Positions 3,974 through 43,332 of a DNA stretch of 64,000 nt are shown here, one piece after another. The stretch's first letter is position 1; the number at the start of each line of letters is the position of its first letter. The position numbers and the translations under genes were made by a program. Below the pieces are notes generated by a model, which was not told where the DNA came from, did not search any database, and saw only the letters and a program-made list of their open reading frames with translations. Source of the stretch: Candidatus Nomurabacteria bacterium (GTDB lineage: Bacteria > Patescibacteriota > Minisyncoccia > Phycocordibacterales > UBA9973); the NCBI GenBank assembly GCA_023267215.1, contig JAHFNS010000002.1:192892-256891 (forward strand), given 5' to 3'.

Positions 3974-4080
3974 ATATCTATATTTAAGCTTATAACGAAA
4001 CTACACCCAACCTTGTTCTTAGGGGGTGTCTATCAATATTTAGTTACTTTTAATATACCAGAAAGAGAATATTTTACAAA

Positions 4081-7772: not shown

Positions 7773-10238
7773 CTATTTAACCTCTCCAAAATTGTCCCCT
7801 GAACCAAAATGCACCAAGAGAGGAATATCTGTTTTGTATTTTAAATATGACCTTTCTAGGACCGTTTGCATGGCATTTTCTATTATTTTTTGAGCCTCTC
7901 CCAGCACTCCCTCCTCTACTTCATAAACTAACTCATCATGTATTTGTAAAACAAGATGTGCCTTATCCAATAATTTTGCTTTTTCTAAATCTTCTTCAGC
8001 ATACCTGATGGCAAGTTTTATTATATCCGCAGTAGCTGTGCCTTGGACGGGAGCATTTATAGCTGTACGTTCTGCCATATTTTTCAAAAATGGAATTCTA
8101 GAATTTATATTCGGAAAATACCTACGTCTACCAAAGAGAGTTTCGGTATAATTATTTTTCATTGCAAAAATTTTTACTCCTTCTAAATAATCCCGCAAGC
8201 CAGAAAATTGATTGAAATAATTGTCATAAAATTTTTGAGCTTCTTCTCTAGTACCTCCTAAACTTTTACGCAAAGCTGAAACCCCCATACCATAAATGAT
8301 ACCGAAATTTATAACTTTCGCTTTGCGACGCATTTCAGCATCTACTTTATCTATCGGTACACCAAAAACAAATGAGGCCACTCCCGCATGAATATCTTTG
8401 CCTTCGCGGAAAATTGCTGTCATCTTTTTATCTCCCGAAAGCATCGCTGCTACGCGAAGCTCTATCTGGCTATAATCAAAAGCCACGAGTTTGCATCCTT
8501 CCCCCGCGATAAAACCATTCCTTATTTTTTTACCTAGCTCTGTTTTGATTGGTAAATTTTGTAAATTTGGATCTTGAGAAGAAAATCTTCCTGTGGTCGT
8601 GCCATTTTGTAAAAATTTAGCATGTAAACGACCATCTTCTGCAATCATCTTTGGAATCACATCAATATAAGTAGAAAGCAATTTCTGTAATTCCCGATAA
8701 GAAAGAATTTCTTTTATAATTGGATTATCTTCTTCAAGTTCTTCTAAGACAGAAACTTTCGTGGAAAAAGAACCACTAGCATTTTTCTTTTTACTTGACT
8801 TCATTCCCATTTTCCCAAAAAGAACTTCTCCCATTTGTTTTGGAGAATTGATATTAAATTCTATCCCGGCTATTTTATATATTTTAGCTGTTAGTTTATC
8901 TAACTCTTGGTGATATTCTTTTGATATTTTTTCAAAATATTCCTTGTCTATAAGAATGCCCCACTCCTGCATCTCTTTGACTATTGGTATTATTGGCTTC
9001 TCTATCTCTTCATATACTTTTTCTAATCCTTTTTCTTTCAGCTTTTTAAAGATATATTCATAGGCTTTTTCAAAAGAATCGGCGTTGGCAAAATGCAAAA
9101 TATCATCCTGTGTAGGATTGGTTATATCTGAATTTATAAGCCAGAGGGCAATAGCTGCTTCTTGAAACTTTTCTTCAGAAATTTCTACAGAGGAAATCGG
9201 AGAAAGCAAAGTTTTGTCGGCCTCAAAAGACGAATCAAGAGAATTTTCTGATGGTCTGGCTGGGGGTCGGGGCCCCAGAGAACCGAGGACCTCAGAAAAT
9301 TCTGCTGGATTTGTCTTTTGACTATTGCTAAAAAAGTTTTTTAGACGCGCAAATAAACTTCTAAACTCAAATAAAGAAAAAGTTGTTTCAATTTTCTTCA
9401 AATCTGCATTTTCCCAAAAAGTTTTCTCTGGCAATTTGAAATCTACTGGGGCATCTGTCCTGATTTTTGCTAAAGTTTTGGAAAACAAAGCTTCTTCTTC
9501 ATTATTTTTTATTAATTCTAAAATTCTTGGAGAAATACCTTTTTTTATAAAAACACTCTCATCTTTTTTAATTTTTTTATATATTTCTTCTATCGTTCCA
9601 AAATTTACAATCAAATTAGTAGCCGTTTTTTCTCCAATACCTTTGATTCCAATAATATTATCAGACGGATCACCTCGTAAACCTTTATAATCTGGTAAAA
9701 GTTTCGGCTTAAATCCAAATCTATCCATAACTTTTTCTTCGTCATATAAAATCGTATCATTGATTCCCTTCTTCAGGGTGTACACTTGCACTTTTTTATC
9801 ATCTATTAATTGCATCGTATCCATATCGCCCGAGGCAATGACTATGTTTATGTTTTTATCTTTTTTTAATTTCTCAACTATCGTACCTAATACATCATCT
9901 GCCTCAAAGCCTGGAGCATCATAAATAGGCACGTTAAAGGCCTCAAAAATTTGCCTAGAATTTTTTAACTGCAAAACAAGAGCATCATCCGTCTTAGCCC
10001 TACCTGCTTTGTATTGGTCATAAGCTTCGTGTCTAAAGGTCTTTTGCGGTAAATCATAACAAGCCACGATATAATCAGGTTTTAAATCTGTAATTATCTT
10101 CATCAGCATTGTAGAAAGCCCATAAAGCGCCCCTGTCGGTTCGCCTTTAGAAGACAAAAATTCAGGCAACGCATGATAAGCCCGATGTATTATCGCATGA
10201 GAATCTAACAACACTAATGTCTTTTTGTCTTTAGTCAT
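7773..10238 (-). CDS. polA: DNA polymerase I (5'-3' exonuclease plus family A polymerase)
   Basis: N-terminal 5'-nuclease motifs (LVLLDSHAIIHRAYHAL). Polymerase motifs RRKAKVINFGIIYGMG and QIHDELVYEV. 821 aa. Confidence 0.95.
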   Translation of the reverse strand: MTKDKKTLVLLDSHAIIHRAYHALPEFLSSKGEPTGALYGLSTMLMKIITDLKPDYIVACYDLPQKTFRHEAYDQYKAGRAKTDDALVLQLKNSRQIFEAFNVPIYDAPGFEADDVLGTIVEKLKKDKNINIVIASGDMDTMQLIDDKKVQVYTLKKGINDTILYDEEKVMDRFGFKPKLLPDYKGLRGDPSDNIIGIKGIGEKTATNLIVNFGTIEEIYKKIKKDESVFIKKGISPRILELIKNNEEEALFSKTLAKIRTDAPVDFKLPEKTFWENADLKKIETTFSLFEFRSLFARLKNFFSNSQKTNPAEFSEVLGSLGPRPPARPSENSLDSSFEADKTLLSPISSVEISEEKFQEAAIALWLINSDITNPTQDDILHFANADSFEKAYEYIFKKLKEKGLEKVYEEIEKPIIPIVKEMQEWGILIDKEYFEKISKEYHQELDKLTAKIYKIAGIEFNINSPKQMGEVLFGKMGMKSSKKKNASGSFSTKVSVLEELEEDNPIIKEILSYRELQKLLSTYIDVIPKMIAEDGRLHAKFLQNGTTTGRFSSQDPNLQNLPIKTELGKKIRNGFIAGEGCKLVAFDYSQIELRVAAMLSGDKKMTAIFREGKDIHAGVASFVFGVPIDKVDAEMRRKAKVINFGIIYGMGVSALRKSLGGTREEAQKFYDNYFNQFSGLRDYLEGVKIFAMKNNYTETLFGRRRYFPNINSRIPFLKNMAERTAINAPVQGTATADIIKLAIRYAEEDLEKAKLLDKAHLVLQIHDELVYEVEEGVLGEAQKIIENAMQTVLERSYLKYKTDIPLLVHFGSGDNFGEVK

Positions 10239-21036: not shown

Positions 21037-21294
21037 TTAAACTATTTTTTTAGGAGCTTTTTTACCTAAAGATTCTTCTAGTTTTGAATTAATTAAATCT
21101 TTTTTAATTAAAATTTCATTTTTGTAGATTGGTTTTATATTTAAATAAATAGTGTTGTTTTTTATTTTTATGTCTTCAGATTTAATTTCCAAACCTATAA
21201 TTTCTTTTAAAATATTTAAAGTAGCATTCTTTTTTATTTCTTCAGAAAGAAGTAAATTACTAAACTTCAATAATAAATCTTTTATTTCTATCAT
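21037..21294 (-). CDS. Small protein downstream of dnaN, DUF721-like
   Basis: 85 aa. Position immediately after dnaN. Hydrophobic periodicity resembling DUF721 proteins found in dnaN-recF neighbourhoods. Confidence 0.4.
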   Translation of the reverse strand: MIEIKDLLLKFSNLLLSEEIKKNATLNILKEIIGLEIKSEDIKIKNNTIYLNIKPIYKNEILIKKDLINSKLEESLGKKAPKKIV

Positions 21295-21337
21295 AATTTT
21301 TCCCCTCTCCTTTATAAGGAGAGGGCTAGGGTGAGGT

Positions 21338-22435
21338 CTATCTATTCATTGGCATAATAAGATAAGTAAAAGAATTATCAGAAGCACCTGAAATGACCAT
21401 GGGTTTTGAAGGTTGATTTAATTTAATAGAAATACTATCTGAATTCATAGACTGGAAGCAATCTAAAAAATATTTATAATTAAATCCTAAATTTATTTCT
21501 TCCCCTTTTATAGCAGCATCTAAATATGTTTTATTTTCTCCAACATCGTTATTTTCAGAGGAAAGCTCAAAAACCTTTTCTTTGGGTGAAATTTTTAGAT
21601 TTATTTGATTAAATTTATCTGAAAAAATGTTTGAAATTTTAAGAGCATTTAAAAGATCTTGTTTTAAAACAACAGCTTCTGTTTTAAATTCTTTAGGTAT
21701 GATTTGTTTATAATCTGGGAAAATTCCATCGATCACCCTAGATGTAAGATAAACCCCATCAGAAGAAAAAGAAATTTGGTTTTTGTTAAAACAAACCTTA
21801 ACCACATCTTGTATTTCTCCAAAGATTCTCAATATTTCCGGTATATTTTTAAAAGGAATAAGTATTCCCCCAATCTCTTCTATCCCCTTAATTTTTACTT
21901 TTTTTTCTGCCAATCTAAAAGAATCCGTTGAAACAAAAATCAAATTATCTTCGTTGGAATATATATAAACACTAGAGATCTCTGGTTTTATATCAGAAAC
22001 AGAAGAACTATAATAAACACTTTTTATCCCTTCTATTAATTTCTTAGATTCCATCTCAAAAGTATTTCCTAAAACTTTTGGTATTGTTGGAAAATCATCA
22101 TACATCTGACCTTTTAATTTTATTCTATTTTTTTTAGTTTTAATTAGTAAATTTCCATCTTCACCATCAAGATAAATATTCTCATTTTGAAAAATATTAG
22201 AAAATATACCAACTAATATTGTGCCTGAAATGGCTACAACACCCTCTTTTTCAATTTTGGCTGGAATTTCTATCTCCACACCTAAACTCAAATTAGTAGA
22301 ACGAAGTTTTAATGTTTTTCCAGAAGCAATAAGTAATATAGAATTCAGAATAGGCAGGGTTAAATTTTTACCTGTTATTTTTTCTACTTGAATAATTGCA
22401 CTTTTTATTTTTTCCACATTGCATTCTAGTTTCAT
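21338..22435 (-). CDS. dnaN: DNA polymerase III beta sliding clamp
   Basis: 365 aa, three-domain clamp pattern, N-terminus MKLECNVEKIKSAI. Directly downstream of dnaA. Confidence 0.9.
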   Translation of the reverse strand: MKLECNVEKIKSAIIQVEKITGKNLTLPILNSILLIASGKTLKLRSTNLSLGVEIEIPAKIEKEGVVAISGTILVGIFSNIFQNENIYLDGEDGNLLIKTKKNRIKLKGQMYDDFPTIPKVLGNTFEMESKKLIEGIKSVYYSSSVSDIKPEISSVYIYSNEDNLIFVSTDSFRLAEKKVKIKGIEEIGGILIPFKNIPEILRIFGEIQDVVKVCFNKNQISFSSDGVYLTSRVIDGIFPDYKQIIPKEFKTEAVVLKQDLLNALKISNIFSDKFNQINLKISPKEKVFELSSENNDVGENKTYLDAAIKGEEINLGFNYKYFLDCFQSMNSDSISIKLNQPSKPMVISGASDNSFTYLIMPMNR

Positions 22436-22683: not shown

Positions 22684-24054
22684 CTATTTAAACAGGATTC
22701 TTATTTGTTCCAATTCTTGTAATAATTGTGGGTCGTTTTTAATATCTTCTTTTATTTTTAAATATGAATGTATGACTGTCGTGTGGTCTTTTCCTCCCAA
22801 TTTTTGTCCTATTAATGGATAAGAGACATTAAAATCTTCTCGAAGTAAATACATTACTACTTGTCTTGCTTTGACTATTTCTTTTCTTCGAGTTTTCTCA
22901 TAAATAGATGCTTCTTCTAGAGAATAATAATCGCTAACTGTTTTTACAACATCTTTTATTGCGACATTTTTTTTAGGTTTAATGTTATTTTTTAATAAAG
23001 CTTTAACTTCAGACACTGAAAGAACCTTATTTTTTAAGCGATATTGGCAGATTATAGTATTTAAACTACCTTCAAGTTCACGAATATTTCCTTGAATTGC
23101 CCCAGCGACGTATTCCATTATTTCTTGATCTAATTCTATTCCCGCTTCTCTTAGTTTCATTTTTAAGATTGCTAGACGAGATTCATATTCTGGCTCAGAA
23201 ACGTCTACAATCATTCCAGCTGCAAACCTAGATTTAAGTCGATCAGCTAATTCGGGAATATAATTTGGATGTTTGTCGGAAGAAAAGATGATTTGTTTGT
23301 TGTTTTCGTAGAAAGTGTTAAATGTGTGAAAAAGTTCTTCTTGAATTTTTTCCATTTTACCAATGAATTGGATATCATCTATAATCAAAAGATCATATTT
23401 ACGATATTTTTCCTTAAAAGAATTTGCTTTATTGTTTTGTAGAGAATTTATAAAATCAGTAGCAAATTTTTCTAAAGTTAAATAATGCACTTTTTTATTT
23501 GCATACTTGTCTTTTATAGAATTTCCGACAGCCTGGAGTAGGTGTGTTTTACCTAAGCCTGTTCCTCCGTAAACAAAAAATGGATTATATTTAGTACCAG
23601 GGTTTTCTATGATTGCCTGAGAAGCTGCATAAGCTAGCTCATTAAATGTTCCAACAATAAATGAATCAAAACGATAACGCGGATTTAAATTATCTTCTGG
23701 ATTGATATATAAGTCTCTTAAAGGTAATTCTTTATTTACATAAACTTCGTTAACCTTATTAACAGTCGGTTCTTGTTTTATAGCTTCTATTTTGGTAATA
23801 ACATACTCCACAGCTCTCATATTTTCATAGACATCAGCCATGGTTTTGGTTATTAATTTATGATATTTGTTTTTTAGCCAATCACGCACAAACTCGTTTG
23901 GCACTCCGACAAATATTATTCCCTCTTCTTCTTTTAGAATGCATGTATTTTTAAACCAAGTGCTAAAATTTGCCTTAGAAATACCTCCTTCTATTTCAAC
24001 TAAACAATTTTTCCACAGTTGCTTCGTATCCATGGGTAGGATTATACTACACAA
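22684..24054 (-). CDS. dnaA: Chromosomal replication initiator DnaA
   Basis: AAA+ Walker A GGTGLGKTHLLQAVGN. Walker B LLIIDDIQF. C-terminal DnaA-box binding HTH (GGKDHTTVIHS). Confidence 0.95.
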   Translation of the reverse strand: MCSIILPMDTKQLWKNCLVEIEGGISKANFSTWFKNTCILKEEEGIIFVGVPNEFVRDWLKNKYHKLITKTMADVYENMRAVEYVITKIEAIKQEPTVNKVNEVYVNKELPLRDLYINPEDNLNPRYRFDSFIVGTFNELAYAASQAIIENPGTKYNPFFVYGGTGLGKTHLLQAVGNSIKDKYANKKVHYLTLEKFATDFINSLQNNKANSFKEKYRKYDLLIIDDIQFIGKMEKIQEELFHTFNTFYENNKQIIFSSDKHPNYIPELADRLKSRFAAGMIVDVSEPEYESRLAILKMKLREAGIELDQEIMEYVAGAIQGNIRELEGSLNTIICQYRLKNKVLSVSEVKALLKNNIKPKKNVAIKDVVKTVSDYYSLEEASIYEKTRRKEIVKARQVVMYLLREDFNVSYPLIGQKLGGKDHTTVIHSYLKIKEDIKNDPQLLQELEQIRILFK

Positions 24055-24329: not shown

Positions 24330-24656
24330 ATGCTTCCTAAAAAAAATAGAGTTGATAAGAAAGGAATAGACCTTGTCTTTAAAGAAGGAAGGTTTATTAA
24401 TTCCCCTCTTTTTACATTTAAATTTATTTTAAATAATAAATTTCTCGAATCTCGTATTTCTTTTATCGTCCCTAAAAGTATAGCTAAACTGGCAGTCGAG
24501 AGAAATTCATTAAGAAGAAAAGGATATTTAGCGTTAGAAAAACATATAAAAGAATTTTCGTCTCATATTTTAGCCACTTTTATTTTTAAAAAGAAAGAAG
24601 AAGATATTTCAAAAATTGAAAATGAAATTAAAAATATTCTCAACAAAATTAATTAG
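24330..24656 (+). CDS. rnpA: RNase P protein component
   Basis: 108 aa basic protein directly after rpmH. Conserved order rpmH-rnpA-yidD-yidC. Confidence 0.8.
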   Translation: MLPKKNRVDKKGIDLVFKEGRFINSPLFTFKFILNNKFLESRISFIVPKSIAKLAVERNSLRRKGYLALEKHIKEFSSHILATFIFKKKEEDISKIENEIKNILNKIN

Positions 24657-24870
24657 CTTTTATCAAAAAATTATAGCCCCTCTTTTAAAAAAATTTTTAG
24701 AGAGTTTTGGGTTATTAAGAAACAATTCTTGCACTTTTTATCCTACTTGTTCAGAATATACCAGAGAAGCTATAAAAAAATATGGTATTTTAAAAGGTTC
24801 TTTTCTTGGTTTTTGGCGAATCCTTCGTTGTCATCCTTGGCAAAAGAATCACATTGACCCACTAAAGTAA
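24616..24870 (+). CDS. yidD: Membrane protein insertion efficiency factor YidD (true start probably an internal Met)
   Basis: Motif CTFYPTCSEYTREAI...RILRCHPW. Confidence 0.85.
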   Translation: MKMKLKIFSTKLISFYQKIIAPLLKKFLESFGLLRNNSCTFYPTCSEYTREAIKKYGILKGSFLGFWRILRCHPWQKNHIDPLK

Positions 24871-24996: not shown

Positions 24997-25755
24997 ATGC
25001 TGTCAAACATTTGGAATACTATCTTATATGCTCCACTTTTAAACGCTTTGGCGTTTTTAGTTTCTATTGTACCCAATGGGGATATTGGTATTGCCGTCAT
25101 TTTACTCACTATTTTTGTAAAAGTGATACTATTTCCTCTTTCTCAGCGTTCAATCGAAAGCCAAATAAAGATGAATTTACTTGCCCCGGAACTTAAAAAG
25201 ATAAAAGATAGTGGTACCTCAAAAGAAGAACAAGCCAAACAAACATTCGAACTTTATAAACACCACAAGACTAATCCTTTTTCTGGTTGTTTGTTGATTT
25301 TAATTCAAATCCCAATTATTTTTGCTCTATATTATGTTTTCTTAAAAGGAATAAATTTAGACGGAGGGATGCTTTATTCTTTTATTCATGTTCCAGAACA
25401 TATAAATATGAATTTTTTAGGAATTTTAGACATCAGCCAGAAAAATTTATTGATTTTAGCAGTACTTGCTGGATTGTCTCAATATTTCCAAGCGCTTCTT
25501 ATGCCTAAACCTATTGTTTCTGAAAACAAAGATGGTTCTTTTCAAGAAAATTTTACCAAGAGCATGCATACTCAAACAAAATACGTTTTTCCTTTTTTAA
25601 TTGGCTTTATTGCTTATAACGTTTCTGGAGCCGTTGCCTTGTATTGGATTACGAGTAATATATTTGCTATAGGTCAGCAAATTTATGCTAATAAAAAGAA
25701 AAAATTAGCCCTAGAAAACGCCAAGGATGTTTCTTGGAAAAATTCTCTTAAGTAA
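24997..25755 (+). CDS. yidC: Membrane protein insertase YidC (short Gram-positive-like form)
   Basis: Multi-TM protein with conserved YidC/Oxa1 core. Follows yidD. Confidence 0.85.
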   Translation: MLSNIWNTILYAPLLNALAFLVSIVPNGDIGIAVILLTIFVKVILFPLSQRSIESQIKMNLLAPELKKIKDSGTSKEEQAKQTFELYKHHKTNPFSGCLLILIQIPIIFALYYVFLKGINLDGGMLYSFIHVPEHINMNFLGILDISQKNLLILAVLAGLSQYFQALLMPKPIVSENKDGSFQENFTKSMHTQTKYVFPFLIGFIAYNVSGAVALYWITSNIFAIGQQIYANKKKKLALENAKDVSWKNSLK

Positions 25756-25769
25756 CATCTTTTAAATTT

Positions 25770-26300
25770 ATGAATAAAACAGAGATACAAAATTTAATAA
25801 AAGAACTTATAGATAAAACTACCATATCAGTAAATAAAATCTCTATTGATGAAGATAGGCCAACAACCTTAAGTGGAGATGAAAATAATACCATTTGGTT
25901 TGGAGTTGAAGTGAGTCAGCCACATTTCTTTTGGGATCGTGGTGGTGAAGCGCTTTTTGCCTTAAATCACATTGCTCGTAAAATAATTGAAAACAAAACT
26001 TCCCCTAAGCTGGGCTTAGGAGAGGGTTCTATTAAGCCTAGCTTGGGGGCACAAGGGTTAGGAATTTTAATAGACATAAATGGCTTTCAAAAAAAACGCA
26101 TTGAAAACATTCACGCGATAGCCCATATGATGGCTGAACGGGCTAGGTATTTTAAGTCAAATATAGAAATAGATCCAATGCCCGCTTTTGAACGTAGAGT
26201 AGTGCATGAATTTTTATCTAATGCTACTGATCTAAAAACTGAATCAGAGGGTGAAGGATACGCTCGTCGAGTAGTTATCAAATACACAGGGACAATTTAG
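25770..26300 (+). CDS. jag: Jag/KhpB R3H-domain RNA-binding protein
   Basis: C-terminal R3H-like ERRVVHEFLS. Conserved position after yidC. Carries an in-frame family-1 hairpin insertion (SPKLGLGEGSIKPSLGAQ). Confidence 0.75.
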   Translation: MNKTEIQNLIKELIDKTTISVNKISIDEDRPTTLSGDENNTIWFGVEVSQPHFFWDRGGEALFALNHIARKIIENKTSPKLGLGEGSIKPSLGAQGLGILIDINGFQKKRIENIHAIAHMMAERARYFKSNIEIDPMPAFERRVVHEFLSNATDLKTESEGEGYARRVVIKYTGTI

Positions 26301-26304
26301 AATT

Positions 26305-26384
26305 CACCTCATCCCCCGCCTTCTCTTTGTAAAGTAGAAGGAGCAAAAACCCTCTCCTTTATAAGGAGAGGGTAGGGTGAGGTT
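26305..26384. repeat. Composite structured element: outer stem ACCTCATCCC/GGGTGAGGT enclosing hairpin CCTTCT...AGAAGG and family-3 hairpin CCCTCTCCTTTATAAGGAGAGGG
   Basis: Seen directly in the sequence, between convergent jag and the first gene of the island. Near-identical family-3 unit at 21302-21337 and 44484-44521. Confidence 0.6.
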
Positions 26385-26386
26385 CT

Positions 26387-27697
26387 TTATTTTAATTTTA
26401 ACCCCCAAAGGTAAGAATCTTTTTTGTTTATAAAAAATAGAAAGTTTTGCCCTTCATCTAGATTGAGTCTCGTTCCATCTACTTCTTCTCCGCTTATTTG
26501 AGTTGGGTCTCCTATCAATGTCGTATTACCACTTGTGATATCAATTTTCCATATTTGATCAGAAAAAGAAACTTCCCCTTGGTACCAAGAGTCCGGATAT
26601 ATTTCATTATCTATATATTTAGGGACAGCGCAATATAGGACATCACTTAATGCACCCCAGACACATTTTTCCGACAGAGTTTTAACTCCAAGTGCAATTG
26701 GTTCTCTTGTTTCAGTGTCAAAAATATTTAAAGATAAATTATTATCACTATATAGAACTAATTTACCGTCTGGGCTTGTAAGTGTTGTTAATCCATTTAT
26801 TTCACCTAAAACTTTATTGAGATCTTTTTTATTTGGATTGATAGCATACATAAATCCTCTGACATTTCCAGAAGGTTTGGTAGTGACTGTAATTAAATTC
26901 TTATTAGTCCAAGAAGATAGCCATTCAGTAAATGGAGAATCAAAAATTTGAATTTTTGTACTGCTTTGTAAATCAAAAGTTACTCCAACCCCATTGTCCC
27001 CTATATTAAATAAATAAAATATTTTTGAAGAATCAGAAGAGACACTCATGTCAGAAATATTTTCTGGCAAAAAAGAGCCTTTTACTTCATTGTTTCCTAT
27101 AGAATCTGCCCCCAAGTATTCTTTTTGTAGCATACCTACATAAGTTTCTATTGTTTTATTATCATCTTTCAAGTAACGCATGATAACAGAATCACCCTTA
27201 TTTCCAAAATATGCTTCATGTACTTTTGGCACTACGGTATTTGAAAATTTTCTCTCGTCTATTTTATCAGCAAAGGTTTGATAGATATTTCCATTTGATT
27301 TGTTTACATACCTCAAAGCAGGAGCGAATTCTGTGGGAGGGATAGCAGAGGAGGCCTTACTTTCTCCTGCTGGAGAAGGCAAGGCCTCTTCTGCTTTAAA
27401 TCTCTCTTTCATAAATACTCCATATCCTGCCACAGGGAAACTAGAAATCTTTTTAAATTTACCATATGAAGCACTATTATCTCCTGCCCCTACATATCCA
27501 GAGACATCTGAAGGAGGTGTCGGATTTGGTGTTGTGGTTTTACTTTTTCCGAATGGTAAGAAGTTTGCAAAAAAGTTTGTGCCAGTTACTGTGCCCCCAT
27601 TTTGATCTTTAGGTTGGAAAAAATAGAGAAAACCAAAAACACCAACTATGATGACTACAAGGATTATTATAAATAAAATGATGTTTCTTTTTGACAT
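26387..27697 (-). CDS. Secreted/membrane-anchored hypothetical protein (beta-rich; last gene of the T4SS-like operon)
   Basis: N-terminal TM/signal anchor (IILFIIILVVIIVGVFGFLYFF). Contains an in-frame GC-rich hairpin insertion (ALLSPAGEGKASSA...). Confidence 0.45.
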   Translation of the reverse strand: MSKRNIILFIIILVVIIVGVFGFLYFFQPKDQNGGTVTGTNFFANFLPFGKSKTTTPNPTPPSDVSGYVGAGDNSASYGKFKKISSFPVAGYGVFMKERFKAEEALPSPAGESKASSAIPPTEFAPALRYVNKSNGNIYQTFADKIDERKFSNTVVPKVHEAYFGNKGDSVIMRYLKDDNKTIETYVGMLQKEYLGADSIGNNEVKGSFLPENISDMSVSSDSSKIFYLFNIGDNGVGVTFDLQSSTKIQIFDSPFTEWLSSWTNKNLITVTTKPSGNVRGFMYAINPNKKDLNKVLGEINGLTTLTSPDGKLVLYSDNNLSLNIFDTETREPIALGVKTLSEKCVWGALSDVLYCAVPKYIDNEIYPDSWYQGEVSFSDQIWKIDITSGNTTLIGDPTQISGEEVDGTRLNLDEGQNFLFFINKKDSYLWGLKLK

Positions 27698-27704
27698 AAA
27701 ATTT

Positions 27705-29036
27705 TTAAGGATATCTATAATATTTTATTCTAGATTTAAGTTTATCTGTTAATGGTCTTATTTGTGTAGGACTATTTGTATTTTGAGTGTCTAATACTTG
27801 TCCATCTTTTACATAAATCATTGTGTGCCCATCTGGTTCGCCATTTTCATTCGCTTTCCATCCCAACAAATCACCTGTATTTATTTTTGAATAATCAAAA
27901 GTTTTTCCATCTATTTTTGTAGTATTACCAGTTGAAAATATTTCAGCACTATTATTCCCCGGGCTTCCCAACCCAGCACATACATATACTTGAGAGACAA
28001 ATGAAGAACAATCAACATAAATAGTTTTACTATCTGTAGTGTTTCTTTTTTCTTTACTATATTCTGTTTGTGGTATGAATAGTTTTCCAATTGGCAAGAT
28101 AGCTTCTTTTCCACCTGTTGCATCGCAAGTGATGCCAAAATCATTTTTTAATATTGTTTTATCTATTGGTTTAAAAGGCAAAGATGATTCACCCCCGAGA
28201 CTTGTGATGGTTATATTAGCCGTTGGCATTTTTAAACATACATTGAGTAATGCCGGATTTAGAGTATTTAAAATGGCATAGGTGCCTAAGGTTATTACAA
28301 GACCCAATATAGCATGTGTAATTCTTTCCTTTCCCGCTTCTTTTGAGGAAATGAGCTCACTGGTCATATATTCCAATCCACCTATTACTATCATCACCAT
28401 AGCGAGGACTGCTGATATACCAATGATTAACTTAACCATTATGTTTAAATAATTTCCGAAAGGACAAGGATTGGTAGTCTCATTATATTGAGTATCGATT
28501 GATTCTAGCCCTGGTAAAGGAGCGAGTGGGGTGTATACAGTCTCTGTGGGGGTTATACAGGTTGTTTTATCAGCACTTGGTATTTCTGGTGATGTACACT
28601 TAAGTTGGGTTATTGGAGCTGGTGTTTGTGATGTAGGTGTTGGTGTGGAGGGAGTTGTTGGAGTAGCTGTATTAGTAGCACCCCATTTATTCACTGTGAC
28701 ATCTACCCATTTTTTTATTGAGTGATCTTTAAAATCCGTACAAGACATTGAGAAGTTTGTTGTTTCATAAAGAGAAGGAGTACTACTTCCCGAACTAGTA
28801 TAATTTCCAAAATCAGCATTTCCTGTATTTGATGTGGTTGTTATATTACAAAAAGTATAACCAGATATTGTCCATGTTATGTTTGTTTTATCACCAGATT
28901 TTATAGTTGAAGGTTCAGCTGTAATAGATGCAGAGAAAGTATTGTCTGCGAAGGTTTGCTGAAACGGAATAAAAAAGCTAAATAAAAATATTGTTAGATA
29001 TGAGAGGGCTATTATTTTTTTAAAAATATTTTTCAT
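27705..29036 (-). CDS. Membrane-anchored cell-wall hydrolase with C-terminal NlpC/P60 domain (functional analogue of VirB1/PrgK in Gram-positive T4SS)
   Basis: Signal peptide, secreted N-domain, Pro/Thr-rich linker (TPTTPSTPTPTSQTPAPI), internal TM segment. C-terminal NlpC/P60 catalytic pattern (CSSFVSQVY...GDLLGW...H.MIYV). Confidence 0.6.
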   Translation of the reverse strand: MKNIFKKIIALSYLTIFLFSFFIPFQQTFADNTFSASITAEPSTIKSGDKTNITWTISGYTFCNITTTSNTGNADFGNYTSSGSSTPSLYETTNFSMSCTDFKDHSIKKWVDVTVNKWGATNTATPTTPSTPTPTSQTPAPITQLKCTSPEIPSADKTTCITPTETVYTPLAPLPGLESIDTQYNETTNPCPFGNYLNIMVKLIIGISAVLAMVMIVIGGLEYMTSELISSKEAGKERITHAILGLVITLGTYAILNTLNPALLNVCLKMPTANITITSLGGESSLPFKPIDKTILKNDFGITCDATGGKEAILPIGKLFIPQTEYSKEKRNTTDSKTIYVDCSSFVSQVYVCAGLGSPGNNSAEIFSTGNTTKIDGKTFDYSKINTGDLLGWKANENGEPDGHTMIYVKDGQVLDTQNTNSPTQIRPLTDKLKSRIKYYRYP

Positions 29037-29037
29037 A

Positions 29038-30027
29038 TTAAAAATTTACTTGTATTTGTTTTGTTATACTTTGAAAAAGTGTATCAGTGTTTTCAACCAT
29101 AAGTTTAATTATAGAACTTCCAGATTGCCCCGCTTCTGGCTTGATAGCTAATATATTTTTAATATCTGGTGTTTGTATTTTGTTTCCATTCAAAAACCAA
29201 CTAAAAACAAGGCTACTTGAATTTATTTCTTGTGGTGAAAAGAAATATGGTTCGGCGACAAGAATTTTTCCATCTCTACTTATAGTGTATCCATCATTCA
29301 AACTATTTTCCCATTTTACCCCAAGTTTTGGATCATCCTCATAAAAAAGTATTTTTGGTTCTGACGTTTTTAAAATTATTCTTTTAGAAGTGTTGGTGCC
29401 TCCTCCAATGTCTGATACTGCTACCTCGACAGTGTTATCTTTATCTAAATAACTATTTTGAAAAATGAAATAATTTTTTCCCCAACCAGAAGAATCAAGT
29501 TGACTGTTGCCATCTTTTTTCCAAACATAAGATAGATTGTTTGTATTTACTTTATTGCCTTGATTGACTAGGTTTGGAATGGCCACTACTTTGAATTTTC
29601 CTTGACTAGGAGCCAGAGCTTTTCCTTTATAAAAAGGCGGGGTATAAGAATCATAAGCTTCCCACAGCAGATCCATATCCGCTATTGTTAGGGTCATTTT
29701 TTTTGAAATACTTTGTCCATCGACAGTATCTATTGTGGCAGATAAATCAGTAGTTGACCCCAAGCCTTCTGTTCTGAAAGAGAAAGATTTTTTACCGATT
29801 GCCTCAATCATTTTTTGACCATTAATAAACCAAGAAATATTAGCCTTATCGAGGTTGACCACATGACTACTTAATACTGCGTTTGTGTTTTGATTTGGTC
29901 CAGGGTATTCTGGTGAGATATTTAAAATAACGTCAGTATTACGTATTTGTGCATTAACAAAAAATCCAAAAAAAGTGGCTAGTACTATAAACAGAATTAT
30001 TAAACTTTTAAAATATTTCTTCTGCAT
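29038..30027 (-). CDS. Secreted hypothetical protein
   Basis: Signal peptide (LIILFIVLATFFGFFVNAQ). Beta-rich. Confidence 0.4.
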   Translation of the reverse strand: MQKKYFKSLIILFIVLATFFGFFVNAQIRNTDVILNISPEYPGPNQNTNAVLSSHVVNLDKANISWFINGQKMIEAIGKKSFSFRTEGLGSTTDLSATIDTVDGQSISKKMTLTIADMDLLWEAYDSYTPPFYKGKALAPSQGKFKVVAIPNLVNQGNKVNTNNLSYVWKKDGNSQLDSSGWGKNYFIFQNSYLDKDNTVEVAVSDIGGGTNTSKRIILKTSEPKILFYEDDPKLGVKWENSLNDGYTISRDGKILVAEPYFFSPQEINSSSLVFSWFLNGNKIQTPDIKNILAIKPEAGQSGSSIIKLMVENTDTLFQSITKQIQVNF

Positions 30028-30067
30028 CTTATCTATTATATATCAGCTAGAACCTAGAAACTAGAAC

Positions 30068-31918
30068 CTAACTTTTTTCTTCTTCTTTCGATTTTTCCAA
30101 ATCCTCCTTGGCTTTTTTGATAGATAAAATTTGAGACGGATCGGAAGTTATGATTTGATCTTCAGTGTAAGAAGAGATGACCTTGATTGCAACGTGTTTT
30201 AGTCCAGCAAAGAATATTCCTTCACCTACTCCGGATTCTAAAAGTAAATATTTTTCTTCATCAGTCAAATTAAATGTTTTTTGTAAAATATCTATGGTGG
30301 TTGGAGATTGCTTTAAGAGTAGTTGAATAGAAGAGTTGGTGATGATAGGGATACCATAGGGAGATTTCATAAAATCAGCTGCGTCTTGGGTGATAGTGGA
30401 AAGTCCTAAATAATATTTTCTTCCTCGCTTGGCGATAGAATAAAGGAATGAAGCAGTATCTTCAGATTTCATCATCCACCAAGCTTCATCAACAACCAGA
30501 AGACGTTTCTTTAAATTTTTTCGGATAGTTATCCAAATATAATGCATTACAATATACATTGCCACGGGTTTTAATTCATCTTCCATGTCACGAACCGAAA
30601 ACACTACAAACTTTTTATTTATATCTACATTGGAAGGCCTGTTAAGAAAAGTAGACCAAGAGCCCTTGGTATATTTGACCAATCTCTGAATGACGGAGTC
30701 ACTTCCCTCCATTCCACCTAACACCATTTCGAAATCTGAAAGAAGAGGCGGTTCTATGTTTGAAAAATCTGAATCAGGAGTAATATCTTTCATTGCATAG
30801 GTTTCAGATATTGCACGATCCACCATAGAATCTTCTTCTGGAGTTAGTCCACCCAACATCAATCTGAAAAGTCCAACTAGATTTATAATATTTGAACGAA
30901 GGACATCTTCAGCAGATTCATCTTCACGTGGGATAGGTAGATCAAAGGGGTTGATGTGATGATCGGAAGAAAGTGAAATATTGAAATATCTTCCTCCCAC
31001 AGCTTCAGCTAAATATTCATATTCCCTTTCTGGGTCTATGACAATAATATCTATATCAAACATTAAAGACCGAATAATTTCCAGTTTGGTGGCATAACTT
31101 TTTCCTGAACCAGATTTTGCGAATGTCACAGAATTATAATTTTCCAAAGAAAATCTATCAAAGATAACCAAAGAAGAATTGTGTCTATTTACTCCATAAA
31201 GTATTCCCATTTCAGAAGTAAGATCAAAAGAAATAAATGGGAAAATACTTGAAAGGGGCTCCGAATTTAATTTTTGGTGAATACTTAAAAGGTCGTTGCC
31301 GATAGGCATTACGCTTTTAAAACCTTCTTCTTGCTGAAAAAGAGCTGGTTTAATATAGATTAATTTTGATTCGAGAATTGATTTTATTTCATTTTCAACT
31401 TTATAAAGTTCCATCTCATTGTCAGCATAGATGGTAATATAAATGCTTACATCAAACATTTTTTGTTGCGCTTGAATCAAACTGTCACGAAGTCCTTCCA
31501 AATCTTGATAAGCAGTATCGAGCATTGGATCACGCACCATTCCCTTTCTTTCTCGCACATTTATCTGGCTTTGTACTTCGGCGACTTTTTTTTGAAATTG
31601 TCTTAAGGCAAGAGATGTATCTACTGGATGAATAAAAATTGAAACATCAAAAACTTTATCCAAATTGATTACAGGAGAAAACCAATTATCGGAAAGAAAT
31701 CTAGGATAGGAAATAATGAAAAAAGTACGAGCAATTTTATCACCCAAATTTATAGATTTTGATTCGATCTTTAAGGCAGATGGAGCAATAATATCTTGAA
31801 GTTCTAGTTTAGCCGATTCATATATTTCTTCAGGTAATACTGGAAGAACCGAAGCATTTACTCCTTGTATTTTTTCTTCTTTTTTGTTTTTTCCAAGTAA
31901 TTTATCAAAAATTGACAT
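30068..31918 (-). CDS. VirB4/TrbE/CagE-family type IV secretion ATPase (ATPase domain)
   Basis: Walker A FAKSGSGKSYATK. Walker B-like LLVVDEAWWMM (the DEAW of VirB4s). C-terminal conserved region. Confidence 0.8.
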   Translation of the reverse strand: MSIFDKLLGKNKKEEKIQGVNASVLPVLPEEIYESAKLELQDIIAPSALKIESKSINLGDKIARTFFIISYPRFLSDNWFSPVINLDKVFDVSIFIHPVDTSLALRQFQKKVAEVQSQINVRERKGMVRDPMLDTAYQDLEGLRDSLIQAQQKMFDVSIYITIYADNEMELYKVENEIKSILESKLIYIKPALFQQEEGFKSVMPIGNDLLSIHQKLNSEPLSSIFPFISFDLTSEMGILYGVNRHNSSLVIFDRFSLENYNSVTFAKSGSGKSYATKLEIIRSLMFDIDIIVIDPEREYEYLAEAVGGRYFNISLSSDHHINPFDLPIPREDESAEDVLRSNIINLVGLFRLMLGGLTPEEDSMVDRAISETYAMKDITPDSDFSNIEPPLLSDFEMVLGGMEGSDSVIQRLVKYTKGSWSTFLNRPSNVDINKKFVVFSVRDMEDELKPVAMYIVMHYIWITIRKNLKKRLLVVDEAWWMMKSEDTASFLYSIAKRGRKYYLGLSTITQDAADFMKSPYGIPIITNSSIQLLLKQSPTTIDILQKTFNLTDEEKYLLLESGVGEGIFFAGLKHVAIKVISSYTEDQIITSDPSQILSIKKAKEDLEKSKEEEKS

Positions 31919-31932
31919 ATATTTTTTAGAAT

Positions 31933-32574
31933 TTAATTTTCCAATTCTATTTTCCCCTCCAATTCTCCTGGATTAAATACTTTATAAAATACTTCCACCA
32001 CTTCTTCTGTTCCTAGTTGGACTGATTTTATTCCACAACGTGAAAGCCCTTGTTCTATAACATTTACTCTTTCTTCCAATTGGGATCTTTTTTCTTCGAA
32101 ATCTAGTTGATCTTTAAGTTGCTCATCTTTTTTACTTTTCTTTGAAAATAAATTTGAAAATATTCCAGAATTTGGTTTTAAATTTATATGCGTGTAAGGC
32201 ACAATCACAAAAAAGTTTTTGGTCATAATACTTACAGATTCAGTAAAATTTTTAATAAATTCTATGTATTCTTTTGTTTGTAATTTAAGCAATGGTTCGT
32301 TTTGTACTTTCATTCTATTTTCTAATAACAAAAGATAGGGTCTGATGTCGAGTTTTCTTGATTGAATTGATATTTGAACTGAAAAATCAAGAGTATTTAG
32401 AAAATTTTGAAACTGCATAATAGTAGCCTTTTGTTCGTCATCAGATTTTAGAGAAAGATTAATGGAATTAGCTAATATAATAGCCCGAAGGTCTCCATCT
32501 TTTAAAACAACAATACCATCACGGATTTCCTTGATTGGTACGAATTCTTGAGTTGCTTTTGCATTTAATGCCAT
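31933..32574 (-). CDS. VirB4 N-terminal domain encoded as a separate ORF (split VirB4)
   Basis: PIKEIRDGIVVLKDGDLRAII pattern typical of the VirB4/TrbE N-terminus. Lies 15 nt upstream of the ATPase ORF in a different frame. 213+616 aa is about canonical VirB4 length. Confidence 0.55.
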   Translation of the reverse strand: MALNAKATQEFVPIKEIRDGIVVLKDGDLRAIILANSINLSLKSDDEQKATIMQFQNFLNTLDFSVQISIQSRKLDIRPYLLLLENRMKVQNEPLLKLQTKEYIEFIKNFTESVSIMTKNFFVIVPYTHINLKPNSGIFSNLFSKKSKKDEQLKDQLDFEEKRSQLEERVNVIEQGLSRCGIKSVQLGTEEVVEVFYKVFNPGELEGKIELEN

Positions 32575-32576
32575 AA

Positions 32577-32999
32577 TTATTTTTTCAAATCTAGAACGTC
32601 TAGGCTCCAGGCTAAATCTCGTAATTTATTTCCACTTAATCTTTGCCCTCTTACTTCTCCTAAACCCTCCCTAAAAGAGAGGACGTTCCCTCCCTTGGGG
32701 GAAGCGGGAGCTCCGATTTTCATATGTTTTTTCCAGATATAAAGTTTATTTTGAAAAGAAAATTTTACTCCTGCTTCTATCATATTAATAAATGGCTTAC
32801 CATTTGGATGATAGAAAGTTAAGGCTATAGATAATCCAGCTATGGCTAAAATAGGTATTGCTCCTAGCCAAAGACCCAATAATTTATATAAGGTGTAACA
32901 CAATCCTGCTCCTCCCACTAAGTAGACGAATTCCTTAAAAGTGAAAGGACCAAAAATTTTGTCTTCTATCTCCAAAAATTGTGGAACTTTAAACTGCAT
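32577..32999 (-). CDS. VirB3-like small membrane protein
   Basis: 140 aa with two TM helices, immediately upstream of VirB4 as in VirB3/PrgI. Contains an in-frame G-rich hairpin insertion. Confidence 0.5.
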   Translation of the reverse strand: MQFKVPQFLEIEDKIFGPFTFKEFVYLVGGAGLCYTLYKLLGLWLGAIPILAIAGLSIALTFYHPNGKPFINMIEAGVKFSFQNKLYIWKKHMKIGAPASPKGGNVLSFREGLGEVRGQRLSGNKLRDLAWSLDVLDLKK

Positions 33000-33038
33000 A
33001 ATTTAATTATAAATCAGAAACAATCAATTACCTAGTAC

Positions 33039-33653
33039 TTACTCTGGTGTTTCTCTATATGGATCTACTTTTGGTACTCCAATCTTTTTAATTGATGAAT
33101 TGTTTTCTTTCGATAGGTTACCAATAGAATGATTTGTCTCAATTGTTGGAGACTGGACAGCTCCTCTCAATTTTTGTTCTAAAATTGAGGCTGTATCAAA
33201 AGGAACCCTTGGGGAATTAAACCCCTCCTGTTGTCTCTCCTTGTCAGGGGAGGTTCTCATTATTTCTCCCCCTGACAAGGGGGATACAGGGGGTTTCTCT
33301 TCTTTTGGTTCCGATCCCTTTTTTCTTTCTATAATTTTTACTAATTCCTCGCGAATTCTGTTAAAAACCTTTTCATTCATTTCGTTGACCAACACGTCTA
33401 TTTGAGCTTTTGGTAAAAGCATTCTTTTTTCTAACTCCTTCGGATAGTCTTCTGTGTCCAAAAGTCCACAGAGCAAGAGTTCTGTCTCTATTTCTAAATC
33501 TTCTAATTGCTCATAACTGTATCCTTTTTCTGCTCGCATATCTAAAATTATCTTTTTCCAATCAATAGCATCAATAGCTTGTCTACTTTCTTCTGAAAGT
33601 GAAGTTCTTGCTTTATCTATTTTTATTTTTAATAAATCTACGGTGTTTTCCAT
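33039..33653 (-). CDS. Acidic hypothetical protein, paralogue of the adjacent ORF
   Basis: DWKKIILDMRAEKGYSYEQLEDLEIETELLL aligns with DWIKITEEIAEKYSLDEDELNDFQLETLLLL of 33662-34177. Contains GC-rich hairpin insertions. Confidence 0.45.
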   Translation of the reverse strand: MENTVDLLKIKIDKARTSLSEESRQAIDAIDWKKIILDMRAEKGYSYEQLEDLEIETELLLCGLLDTEDYPKELEKRMLLPKAQIDVLVNEMNEKVFNRIREELVKIIERKKGSEPKEEKPPVSPLSGGEIMRTSPDKERQQEGFNSPRVPFDTASILEQKLRGAVQSPTIETNHSIGNLSKENNSSIKKIGVPKVDPYRETPE

Positions 33654-33661
33654 ATATTTTT

Positions 33662-34177
33662 TTAAAACCCTCTTCCGACCTCTCCCTTATCAAGGTGAGG
33701 AGATGTGGTGTCCCCCCTGACAAGGGGGTTATAGGGGGTTGTATTAATCATATCACTTTCTTTTTCATTTCTTTTTTCCATAAAAACAGAATAATCTCCA
33801 CCGGAAACAATAAAATCAAGGGTTTGTTTCCAATCTAATTTTTTATTTTGGATATTTTTTTTAACATTTTCTGTTATAAGTTTATTTAGAGGGTTAAATA
33901 TTTTTTGGAAAGATTCTTTTGCAATGTTTTCTGCTTCCTCTTTAGTAGTTTCAACTTGATTTTCGATATTAATTGCATAAAATTCTGGATCTGTGGACCC
34001 TATTAGAAGCAATAAAGTTTCTAACTGAAAATCATTTAGTTCGTCCTCATCTAAGGAATATTTTTCTGCTATTTCTTCTGTTATTTTGATCCAATCAAAA
34101 GAATTAATGACTTCCTGCATTTCTTTTGGTAATTCCACCATCTCTTCTTTAATTGTTTGTTGTAATTTTTCTGTCAT
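33662..34177 (-). CDS. Acidic hypothetical protein, paralogue of 33039-33653
   Basis: See paralogue alignment. Contains hairpin insertion (GDTTSPHLDKGEVGRGF). Confidence 0.45.
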   Translation of the reverse strand: MTEKLQQTIKEEMVELPKEMQEVINSFDWIKITEEIAEKYSLDEDELNDFQLETLLLLIGSTDPEFYAINIENQVETTKEEAENIAKESFQKIFNPLNKLITENVKKNIQNKKLDWKQTLDFIVSGGDYSVFMEKRNEKESDMINTTPYNPLVRGDTTSPHLDKGEVGRGF

Positions 34178-34188
34178 AAATTTATTAA

Positions 34189-37287: not shown

Positions 37288-37312
37288 CTTTATTTCGTAA
37301 TTTATTTCTCAA

Positions 37313-37924: not shown

Positions 37925-37973
37925 TTTATTTTTTGTATTTTTTTTCTAGAACCTAGAAACTAACACCTAGCCC

Positions 37974-40283: not shown

Positions 40284-40321
40284 TTAATTTTTCTTTTATC
40301 TAGTACCTAGCAGCTAATTAC

Positions 40322-43285: not shown

Positions 43286-43332
43286 TTTGCTAATGCCTAG
43301 CGCCTAAAGCCCAACAACTACCTTAAATTATA

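Follow-up and report, generated by a model that had tools for sequence, protein, structure and literature searches.

The stretch analysed here, 64,000 nucleotides of a Candidatus Nomurabacteria contig (JAHFNS010000002.1, positions 192,892 to 256,891; "the window" below), contains three copies of a short GC-rich repeat, family 3. These copies very probably belong to a class of dispersed GC-rich mini-repeats, 27–47 nt long, whose single-stranded DNA has the potential to form a class II intrastrand triplex, of the same kind as the BoxC repeats, PIT (potential intrastrand triplex) elements and TM_ECO motif of Escherichia coli. All three copies are discrete units, each of them present at some orthologous sites in related genomes and absent from others. 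Homologues of KsgA place the host in Candidatus Nomurabacteria/Paceibacterota, within the candidate phyla radiation (CPR). What is new relative to the known kind is this host range, together with the habit of residing in frame within genes; no report of a CPR/Patescibacteria host range or of in-frame residence was found in the literature searched. The first-pass annotation had described the three copies and proposed that two of them bracket a mobile island of type IV secretion system (T4SS) genes, a proposal that we consider below.

Exact matching bore out the description of three co-oriented copies of a 23-nt palindrome, CCCTCTCCTTTATAAGGAGAGGG, on the + strand at 21303–21325, 26350–26372 and 44484–44506; none is expected by chance (3 observed against 0 in 100 shuffles of the window). 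The window contains GGGTGAGGT at 21329, 26375 and 44513 only (shuffle expectation 0.1), in each case following a palindrome, after gaps of 3, 2 and 6 nt respectively. The stem is 10 bp long with a 3-nt loop, CCCTCTCCTT/TAT/AAGGAGAGGG, and not the 8 bp with a 7-nt loop given previously. The complete units are 35–39 nt long. The first (21303–21338, +) reads CCCTCTCCTT tat AAGGAGAGGG cta GGGTGAGGTC and lies between the dnaN stop codon (21338–21340) and the ATG (21294) of an open reading frame (ORF) of 85 amino acids. The second (26350–26384, +), CCCTCTCCTT tat AAGGAGAGGG ta GGGTGAGGTT, lies between the convergent genes jag and ORF436, and the third (44484–44522, +), CCCTCTCCTT tat AAGGAGAGGG atttaa GGGTGAGGTG, is antisense and in frame in ksgA (TSPLNPSPYKGEG).

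The units share a single architecture. A hairpin scan of the window, which has a GC content of 33.4%, showed that the GC-rich hairpins with an all-pyrimidine 5′ arm are each followed by a G-rich tract, and this third arm is present in all 11 of the GC-rich pyrimidine/purine hairpins. In this layout a C/T arm is joined by a short loop to its G/A complement, and after a short spacer there follows a G/T/A arm, the mirror of this purine arm according to the triad rules G*G:C and A*A:T or T*A:T. We therefore use the term triplex motif (TM) for such a unit. A finder written on these rules accepted perfectly paired pyrimidine/purine hairpins of 7 bp or more, with 3–10 nt in loop 1 and 1–30 nt in loop 2, whose third arm mirrors the purine arm by G*G, A*A or T*A with at most one mismatch. 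In the window it detected 10 such units of 7 or more triads, 8 on the + and 2 on the − strand, against 0–1 per dinucleotide shuffle (n = 30). With a unit at 33713–33739, which like the degenerate partners mentioned below comes from reading of the sequence and is outside the finder count, the total is at least 11: the three family-3 copies and eight others. The family-3 copies, with the arm set CCCTCTCCTT/AAGGAGAGGG/GGGTGAGGTT, have 10 triads with 0–1 mismatch, a loop 1 of 3 nt and a loop 2 of 2–6 nt, and the copy at 26350 is perfect at 10 of 10. Asymmetric arms reveal mirroring, and not direct repetition, in the third arm: GGGGGAGA is followed by AGAGGGGG, AGGGGGAG by GAGGGGGT, AGGAGGGGG by GGGGGTGGT, and AAGGAGAGGG by GGGTGAGGTT.

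The same rule fits all of the "hairpin plus G-tract" units previously listed at 33.2, 33.7, 44.8 and 55.1 kb, which both the finder and sequence reading showed to be real, and the suggestion that they form one superfamily thus holds. Two other ways of accounting for the third arm were tried. Pairing of this arm with either hairpin arm as RNA was rejected, since by eye it leaves 2–3 mismatches in 8. A G-quadruplex built from four short G-runs is possible, but leaves the mirrored A/T positions unexplained. Rfam at gathering thresholds identified five tRNAs only in the window, with no match at the repeats.

The ITxF definition of intrastrand triplex motifs calls for stems of 6–15 nt with at most one mismatch, loops of 1–6 nt, and an antiparallel third arm in reverse-Hoogsteen arrangement (Holder et al., 2015, NAR 43:10126, PMC4666352). 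The three family-3 copies fall within its class II purine-motif definition, and the window units are over-represented relative to scrambled sequence, as is also expected of such motifs, above all of those with G/C-rich stems of 8 nt or more. Some variants in the window go beyond its settings, with a loop 2 longer than 6 nt that holds a nested hairpin. Judged by its sequence, then, the window unit is a class II intrastrand triplex motif by the ITxF definition. The E. coli BoxC repeats/PIT elements are intrastrand triplex motifs of the pattern CCCTCNCCC N3-6 GGGNGAGGG N3 GGGNGAGGG, for example CCCTCTCCCTTGAGGGAGAGGGTTAGGGTGAGGGT (Holder et al., 2015), and an oligonucleotide of TM_ECO, CCCTCTCCC-ttga-GGGAGAGGG-tta-GGGTGAGGG, makes a stable class II purine-motif triplex in vitro (PMC4666352, Table 1). 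Such motifs are abundant in enterobacteria and cyanobacteria; in E. coli they are always intergenic and are frequently arranged as inverted pairs. No function has been demonstrated for them, and PIT elements have neither promoter nor terminator activity in E. coli (PMC4666352).

The window units resemble these elements in their three-block class II layout and in a nearly identical sequence, CCCTCTCC(C) ... GG(G)AGAGGG ... YTA ... GGGTGAGG(G). They also share conserved arms with variable loops, dispersed multi-copy occurrence, inverted pairs, abundance in cyanobacteria, and the lack of a tie to phages or plasmids. The inverted-pair habit, which in TM_ECO involves two motif types, is represented in the window by five pairs: 26305/26350, 33221/33267, 33667/33713 (weak), 55145/55209 and 60731/60778. 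BoxC and PIT elements were reportedly described earlier, by Bergler in 1992 and by Hoyne, Maher and colleagues in 2000. The window units differ from TM_ECO in having a G/C core of 8 nt that A:T triads extend to 10, in the possible presence of a nested hairpin in loop 2, and in their setting: TM_ECO is always intergenic in E. coli, whereas 73% of the CPR instances lie in frame inside genes, in a host of 33% GC. In sequence the family-3 unit is a close relative of TM_ECO/BoxC, a variant rather than a strict match.

Comparison with orthologous sites was made on related contigs (designated by L numbers) reached via homologues of KsgA and ORF436. The gene ksgA/rsmA (44267–45178, −) hosts two TMs and encodes 303 amino acids, against 255–265 in insertion-free orthologues. 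The family-3 site within it is empty in L123 and L124 (..AAT TTT | GAG AAA..) and filled in the window, L116, L121 and L122. In the window and in L122 the filled site contains exactly one unit, of 36 nt or 12 codons (TSPQPSPYKGEG) in L122 and of 39 nt in the window, the difference being a longer loop 2. In an alignment of 30 KsgA sequences, roughly half of the orthologues have a filled site; one of them (P0017) reads the unit in another frame (SPHPNPLLIKERE), and others, including L125, have different GC-rich palindromes at the same site. As had been noted from the sequence, the window copy is in frame and encodes ...FTSPLNPSPYKGEGKILDEK.... The insertion falls between the methyltransferase and C-terminal domains. 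In an AlphaFold model (mean pLDDT, the predicted local distance difference test, 80.9), the internal segment of lowest confidence is residues 224–232, a coil inside the insertion with pLDDT below 50. The second ksgA unit (44832–44864, +; TCTCCCCC ctcgaa GGGGGAGA tta AGAGGGGG) belongs to another sequence family and encodes DPLLISPFEGGE. It is common to the window and L121 and absent from L122–L125, and its peptide type (DPLLxSPxxGGE) is found at a different KsgA site in P0012. KsgA also has a further insertion, FAISASHKESDREKTG, at about 44995–45045 (residues ~46–61), which is present in 7 of the 30 orthologues, and a third variable patch at residues ~160–170. KsgA lengths in the lineage range from 255 to 360 amino acids.

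The copy at 21303 separates dnaN (21338–22435, −; ORF and Pfam) from the 85-amino acid ORF (21037–21294, −). The unit is lacking at this junction in L126 and L127, where the ATG of the following ORF adjoins or overlaps the dnaN stop; the window junction is about 44 nt longer, and the difference is made up of the unit and GAAAAATT. An ORF of 85 amino acids occupies the same post-dnaN position in L126 and L127, as judged by position and length. The designation of the window ORF as "DUF721-like" is unsupported, since this ORF has no Pfam match even at E ≤ 1. It had also been proposed that the Shine–Dalgarno (SD) sequence of this ORF is sequestered in the hairpin. The only SD-like sequence, AAGGAGAGGGG, does form the 3′ arm of a hairpin predicted for the RNA, at −17.4 kcal/mol, in which it is fully paired; its distance to the ATG is 8 nt, not 12. 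At this copy GGAGAGGG stands 8 nt before the ATG. The layout of stop, unit, AAAAATT and ATG recurs in L118 between unrelated genes, and an ORF in L043 starts with similar spacing, 8 nt after the arm. L118 was tried as an orthologue of the dnaN junction and rejected, its flanking genes being unrelated. The 21303 copy may have been co-opted as a ribosome-binding site or as a spacer for the 85-amino acid ORF.

At the jag junction, the 26350 copy and an inverted partner together fill the 86-nt convergent spacer between jag and ORF436. The partner (26305–26343, −), 5 nt after the jag stop, is degenerate and was read from the sequence as CCTTCT, an 11-nt loop, AGAAGG, cg and GGATGA(GGTG). L127 has the same pair, 96.6% identical to that of the window although the flanking genes are only ~74% identical; L128 has two different TMs here; and L126 has none, with a spacer of 20 nt. 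On the − strand the 26350 hairpin runs into TTTTTG and is the top terminator-like site of the region. Among the three copies it alone has the features of an intrinsic terminator, namely an 11-bp stem, a 3-nt loop and the tail TTTTGCTCCT, located 14 nt past the ORF436 stop, and the hairpin with its T-run may terminate transcription of ORF436.

These junctions supply the case for regarding the units as primarily host RNA signals (intrinsic terminators, mRNA stabilisers or SD-masking hairpins), with the third arm being incidental. The 26350 hairpin, with its 11-bp stem followed by TTTTGCTC, and the strong conservation of its pair relative to the flanks fit such a role, as do the hairpin pairs found at the convergent jag junction in three genomes, and the presence of GGAGAGGG 7–8 nt before the start codon in the 21303 copy, L118 and L043, combined with a hairpin of −17 kcal/mol. 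We nevertheless consider this explanation unlikely for the units as a class. The majority of CPR copies fall within ORFs, a setting in which a terminator or a ribosome-binding site would do harm or make no sense, and a T-run is found at only one of the three copies. The mirror third arm has no role in a terminator and yet is conserved across phyla. RNA does not form purine-motif triplexes (PMC4666352, introduction), and E. coli PIT elements lack terminator activity, as stated above. RNA signalling fits best as a secondary co-option of single copies.

Among the matches listed from a one-genome-per-species collection, more than 120 loci contain the exact 23-mer. The CPR hosts in this list are Nomura-, Moran-, Falkow-, Komeili- and Magasanikbacteria, Saccharibacteria, Minisyncoccia and Parcubacteria; its cyanobacterial hosts are Nostoc, Brasilonema, Scytonema, Calothrix and Tolypothrix (Nostocales); and the remainder are Ignavibacteria/Melioribacteraceae, Bacteroidetes, Gastranaerophilales (Melainabacteria) and one Dehalococcoidia. 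In nearly all listed loci GGGTGAGGT follows within 2–30 nt. The flanks are unrelated, except in Nostoc, where the 23-mer and GGGTGAGGT form the core of a conserved repeat of ~100 nt (ggattaaataaaatgcaaaacttcatcctgtctctagctt ... aagccagggacataaattgtatgtta; L001, L002, L005 and ~60 other loci), which is probably a family of MITEs (miniature inverted-repeat transposable elements) or of small dispersed repeats. A phage vector is unsupported, the 23-mer having a single match among 2.9 million viral contigs.

The mirrored third arm extends across these genomes. Of the 234 GC-rich pyrimidine/purine hairpins in the window and 125 loci taken together, 218 are followed within 30 nt by a third arm that fits a mirror with no more than one mismatch. 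The mean number of third-arm mismatches in the same 126 sequences is 0.46 for a mirror, 2.08 for a direct repeat and 2.78 for shuffled flanks, and the mirror fits better in 194 cases and the direct repeat in 6. Arms other than those of family 3 behave likewise, with a mirror arm in 55 of 65 and a ratio of mirror to direct of 35:5.

The location of the 23-mer relative to genes differs between host groups. Among the matches listed, 33 of the 45 CPR instances are inside ORFs (26 antisense and 7 sense) and 12 are intergenic, compared with 9 inside ORFs and 61 intergenic for the 70 cyanobacterial instances, and 3 and 11 respectively for the 14 from other phyla. All four stop-free frames are in use in CPR, giving the peptides PSPYKGEG, PLLIKER(G/E), PLLYKER and LSFIRRG. 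Because every stop-free frame is used, and non-coding spacers as well, the data point to a DNA-level element and not to selection of a peptide; frame usage in CPR thus separates DNA-level from protein-level selection. It is true that many CPR proteins contain TSPQPSPYKGEG, and that several KsgA orthologues have it at one and the same site, as would be expected if the repeat were selected as a protein motif, a linker of the PSPYKGEG type. We regard this as hardly credible, because the same DNA is read in four frames or orientations and also occupies non-coding spacers, cyanobacterial copies are mostly intergenic, P0017 has SPHPNPLLIKERE at the very same KsgA site, and the segment is predicted to be disordered.

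On the reading that we prefer, the triplex-motif unit would be a non-autonomous element, selfish or structure-driven, that is kept or spread at the level of DNA in the manner of REPINs (paired repetitive extragenic palindromes, REPs) or Rickettsia palindromic elements (RPEs). It would persist where it is harmless, that is, in spacers and in disordered protein loops. Many copies are found within ORFs because CPR genomes have almost no spacer DNA, and in these compact genomes a unit would survive chiefly when it has landed in frame within a permissive loop, as RPEs do. Single copies would occasionally be co-opted, the 26350 copy serving as a terminator and the 21303 copy as a separator of dnaN and the next ORF that supplies an SD-like sequence.

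A more far-reaching form of this reading is that an element of ~36 nt is actively propagated or maintained through recognition of its hairpin/triplex fold, that it has invaded CPR coding genes in every stop-free frame as RPEs do, and that its arms are shared among CPR, cyanobacteria, Ignavibacteria and Bacteroidetes by inter-phylum transfer or through a universal sequence optimum. This is a tentative idea, possible but doubtful. If true, it would explain why the arms are more conserved than the surrounding genes. The identity across phyla and the RPE-like invasion of CPR genes merit a systematic survey.

A different view is that the units arise, or are kept, in place, by a structure-driven bias of mutation or repair, or because AT-rich genomes are under convergent selection for a stable GC-rich fold, and are not copied from one another. 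An identical 23-mer in distant phyla with unrelated flanks is what this view expects, and the single match in viral contigs means that there is no obvious vector. Neither target-site duplication nor a transposase was seen, as described below. The loops and spacers differ among the three window copies, where transposed copies should be identical, and different TMs occupy the same loop of the CCA-adding enzyme and the same jag junction in relatives. Set against this, a filled site has one clean 36-nt block more than an empty one and intermediate forms are lacking, identical 32-nt arm sets are very unlikely to originate independently three times in a 33% GC genome, and the Nostoc repeat of ~100 nt with the unit as its core has clearly been copied. 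Origin in place therefore seems improbable to us.

Several points weigh against the identification of the units as mobile triplex motifs. The strict TM_ECO pattern is not matched by the window copies, which read CCCTCTCCT.../...AGGAGAGGG/GGGTGAGGT and agree at 8 of 9 arm positions, the ninth being T/A/T in the window and C/G/G in TM_ECO, with a window loop 2 of 2–6 nt. No stable triplex of TM_ECO was seen in double-stranded DNA or by in vivo dimethyl sulfate (DMS) footprinting (PMC4666352), and the triplex structure may be only transient or irrelevant. The cross-genome loci were selected for family-3 copies, which introduces an ascertainment bias. In short arms with a single A, mirror and direct repeats are indistinguishable, because T is allowed opposite A; the weight lies on the long asymmetric arms and on the ratio of 194:6. 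No target-site duplication appears in the flank profiles of 31 CPR and other instances, which show a weak preference for TTCY 5′ of the pyrimidine arm and AT-rich flanks, and there is no transposase among the ~35 ORFs scanned with Pfam in the 64-kb window. Mobility is deduced solely from presence and absence among species that are ~65–75% identical. At strain level there is no sign of presence/absence: judged by gene coordinates, the alternate contigs L130 and L131, which have identical ORF436, show the same gene lengths and spacing. Lastly, the conservation of the arms above that of the flanking genes (96.6% vs ~74%) could reflect a host function and not selfish spread.

Three other groups of small repeats may be compared with the TM units. 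RPEs, said to have been described by Ogata and colleagues in 2000, are reportedly 100–150 bp long and restricted to Rickettsia. Like the TM units, they are small palindromes that have entered housekeeping genes in frame, in a genome that is reduced and AT-rich; they are tolerated in loops that are disordered or at the surface, and their presence among orthologues is patchy. They differ in length (100–150 bp against 27–47 nt), have an unrelated sequence and lack the mirror third arm, and the TM units are not members of this family. REPs and REPINs with their REP-associated tyrosine transposase, RAYT (Bertels and Rainey, 2011, PMC3116915), are likewise short GC-rich hairpins that form inverted doublets, and are non-autonomous and extragenic in most hosts. 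REPs, however, are lineage-specific and have no mirror third arm, whereas the TM units are found across phyla and have no 5′ tetranucleotide of the GTAG type; no RAYT was found among the ~35 Pfam-scanned ORFs of the window. As to cyanobacteria, the Nostoc repeat of ~100 nt is multi-copy and has the 23-mer and GGGTGAGGT as its core, and CPR share only this core of 35–39 nt. Small dispersed or MITE-like repeats of Nostocales were reportedly described by Elhai and colleagues in 2008.

The triplex-motif reading links what had been three separate subjects: the E. coli BoxC/PIT motifs, the GC-rich mini-repeats of cyanobacteria, and the short GC-rich insertions, so far unexplained, by which CPR housekeeping proteins are lengthened. 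In annotation, such units would account for differences in protein length, loops of low confidence, breaks in assemblies and peptides that are only spuriously "conserved", such as PSPYKGEG. CPR genomes would also provide a test bed for the question, dating from 1992–2000, of whether triplex-forming repeats are selfish, mutagenic or functional. With respect to assembly breaks, L131 (a Logan contig of the same strain, independently assembled) ends at 4036, 33 nt past the ORF436 stop, which from the coordinates alone corresponds to the TM position in the window. Triplex-motif repeats probably break short-read assemblies.

The remaining units of the window range in length from 27 to 47 nt, like the class as a whole, and 7 of the 8 units outside family 3 are inside ORFs, as is one of the three family-3 copies. 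Those at 530–571, 26305–26343, 60731–60764 and 60778–60819 had not been listed before. The unit at 530–571 (+), CTCCTCCT tgttg AGGAGGAG, loop 2 tgccctttagggc, GAGATGGT, is in the UvrC gene (51–1343, −), where it sits in the linker from the UVR motif to the endonuclease domain. The one at 33267–33294 (+), TCCCCCT gaca AGGGGGA tac AGGGGGT, is inside an ORF at 33039–33653 (−) and has a degenerate inverted partner at 33221–33256. The adjacent ORF (33662–34177, −) contains the unit at 33713–33739 (+), CCCCCT gaca AGGGGG ttata GGGGGT, with 6 triads and a possible degenerate partner at 33667–33702. An Asp/Glu racemase-family gene (60276–61217, +) has a unit in frame at 60731–60764 (+), CCCCCTCCT tgtgg AGGAGGGGG ca GGGGGTGGT, and its inverted partner at 60778–60819 (−) reads CTCCTCCT ttctg AGGAGGAG, loop 2 tgccttttagggc, GAGGTGGT. 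Loop 2 holds a nested hairpin at 55165–55183 and in the units at 530–571 and 60778–60819.

The gene for the CCA-adding enzyme contains a sense, in-frame unit at 55145–55191 (+), which reads CTCCCCCT gcta AGGGGGAG, loop 2 ggttcggtaaaccgaacc (the nested hairpin), GAGGGGGT. Its inverted partner at 55209–55240 (−) reads CTCCCCT gcaa AGGGGAG aattgag GAGGAGT. The first of these is absent from the L121 orthologue, which has a family-3 TM at the site of the second. The enzyme is 77% identical between the window and L121, yet different TMs occupy the same loop, which suggests permissive hot spots or turnover.

We turn now to the proposed island. The T4SS block (26387–44277, −) encodes surface proteins and a Gram-positive-type T4SS comprising PrgI, a TraC-like protein, a VirB4/TraG P-loop protein, an NlpC/P60-pilin and ORF436. 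It is preceded by uvrD (45182–47323, −; ORF and Pfam) and ksgA, and the order is uvrD, ksgA, surface proteins, PrgI, TraC-like, VirB4 and so on to ORF436, which is convergent with jag (25770–26300, +; ORF and Pfam), yidC (24997–25755, +), yidD, rnpA and rpmH; beyond these are dnaA (22684–24054, −; ORF and Pfam), dnaN and the 85-amino acid ORF. Copies 2 and 3 are indeed distant direct repeats, 18,134 nt apart, and could in principle be attachment (att)-like relics of integration of the block or substrates for its deletion or inversion. In favour of this are the presence of two identical co-oriented copies 18.1 kb apart at the ends of a minus-strand block, and the occurrence within the block of small genes of mobile-element flavour (ORF6N) in a slot that varies among relatives.

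The neighbourhood in related genomes does not bear this out. The order uvrD, ksgA, large proteins, PrgI, TraC-like and VirB4 is the same on the ksgA side of L121, L122, L124 and L125. On the jag side of L126, L127 and L128, VirB4, two ORFs and the ORF436 orthologue are convergent with jag-yidC-(yidD)-(rnpA)-(rpmH), followed by dnaA, dnaN, (the 85-amino acid ORF) and a gene for a penicillin-binding protein (each gene in brackets is lacking among those called in one or two of these loci). The block and its neighbours are thus syntenic in seven related Nomurabacteria/Paceibacterota loci, at 55–77% amino acid identity, with or without the repeats: in L124 the block stands beside a repeat-free ksgA, and in L126 it stands beside jag without any repeat. 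The T4SS block of this CPR bacterium is therefore ancestral in the lineage and is not a bracketed mobile island, and a false lead is thereby removed.

Other evidence agrees. Neither an empty site in relatives nor a restriction of the repeats to the junctions, both expected of att sites, was found. Pfam scans of the 19 ORFs between 26387 and 45178 detected no integrase or recombinase, and GC content in the block is not atypical (0.31–0.36, compared with 0.334 for the window). ORF436, with 1229 homologues, is a core gene. The right-hand copy lies 200 nt inside ksgA, off the gene boundary, a third identical copy is outside the block, and the eight other units are spread over the window; further copies are found in unrelated genes and genomes. 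Recombination between 32 identical nt is physically possible, but would delete conserved genes. The first-pass annotation had itself named copies elsewhere, and the island with other junctions, as findings that would tell against its proposal, and we observe both. The reading of copies 2 and 3 as integration relics that bracket an accessory island is thus refuted.

The T4SS block has a slot occupied by differing small accessory genes: ORF6N in the window (37313–37924), NYN and GIY-YIG in L121 (15113–15622 and 19185–19439), PemK in L124 (10346–10732), and Bro-N with a nucleotidyltransferase in L125 (7662–8518).

Other GC-rich repeats are present in the window. One that has no triplex motif, GGTCTGGCCGGGATAGGGACCCGG, occurs exactly in uvrD (47030–47053) and in the CCA-adding enzyme gene (55887–55910), with a degenerate relative at 9244–9298 in an ORF at 7773–10238; it appears to be another family of in-frame mini-insertions. 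Two more GC-rich palindrome families are located within genes: GCCNGGCTTTGG...AAAGCCNGGC (156–187 and 2910–2952) and CCTAAGCCCAGCTT.GGGGA (5259–5339 and 26001–26023), one copy of the latter being inside jag and having a terminator-like score. In yidD (24616–24870, +) the YidD match covers 74 residues against 63 profile positions, which hints at one more short insertion. Finally, GC skew is negative on both sides of dnaA (window positions 1–52000), and the genes to the right of dnaA (26–51 kb) are mostly on the minus strand; the replication origin may not be next to dnaA, or the skew may follow the gene strand.

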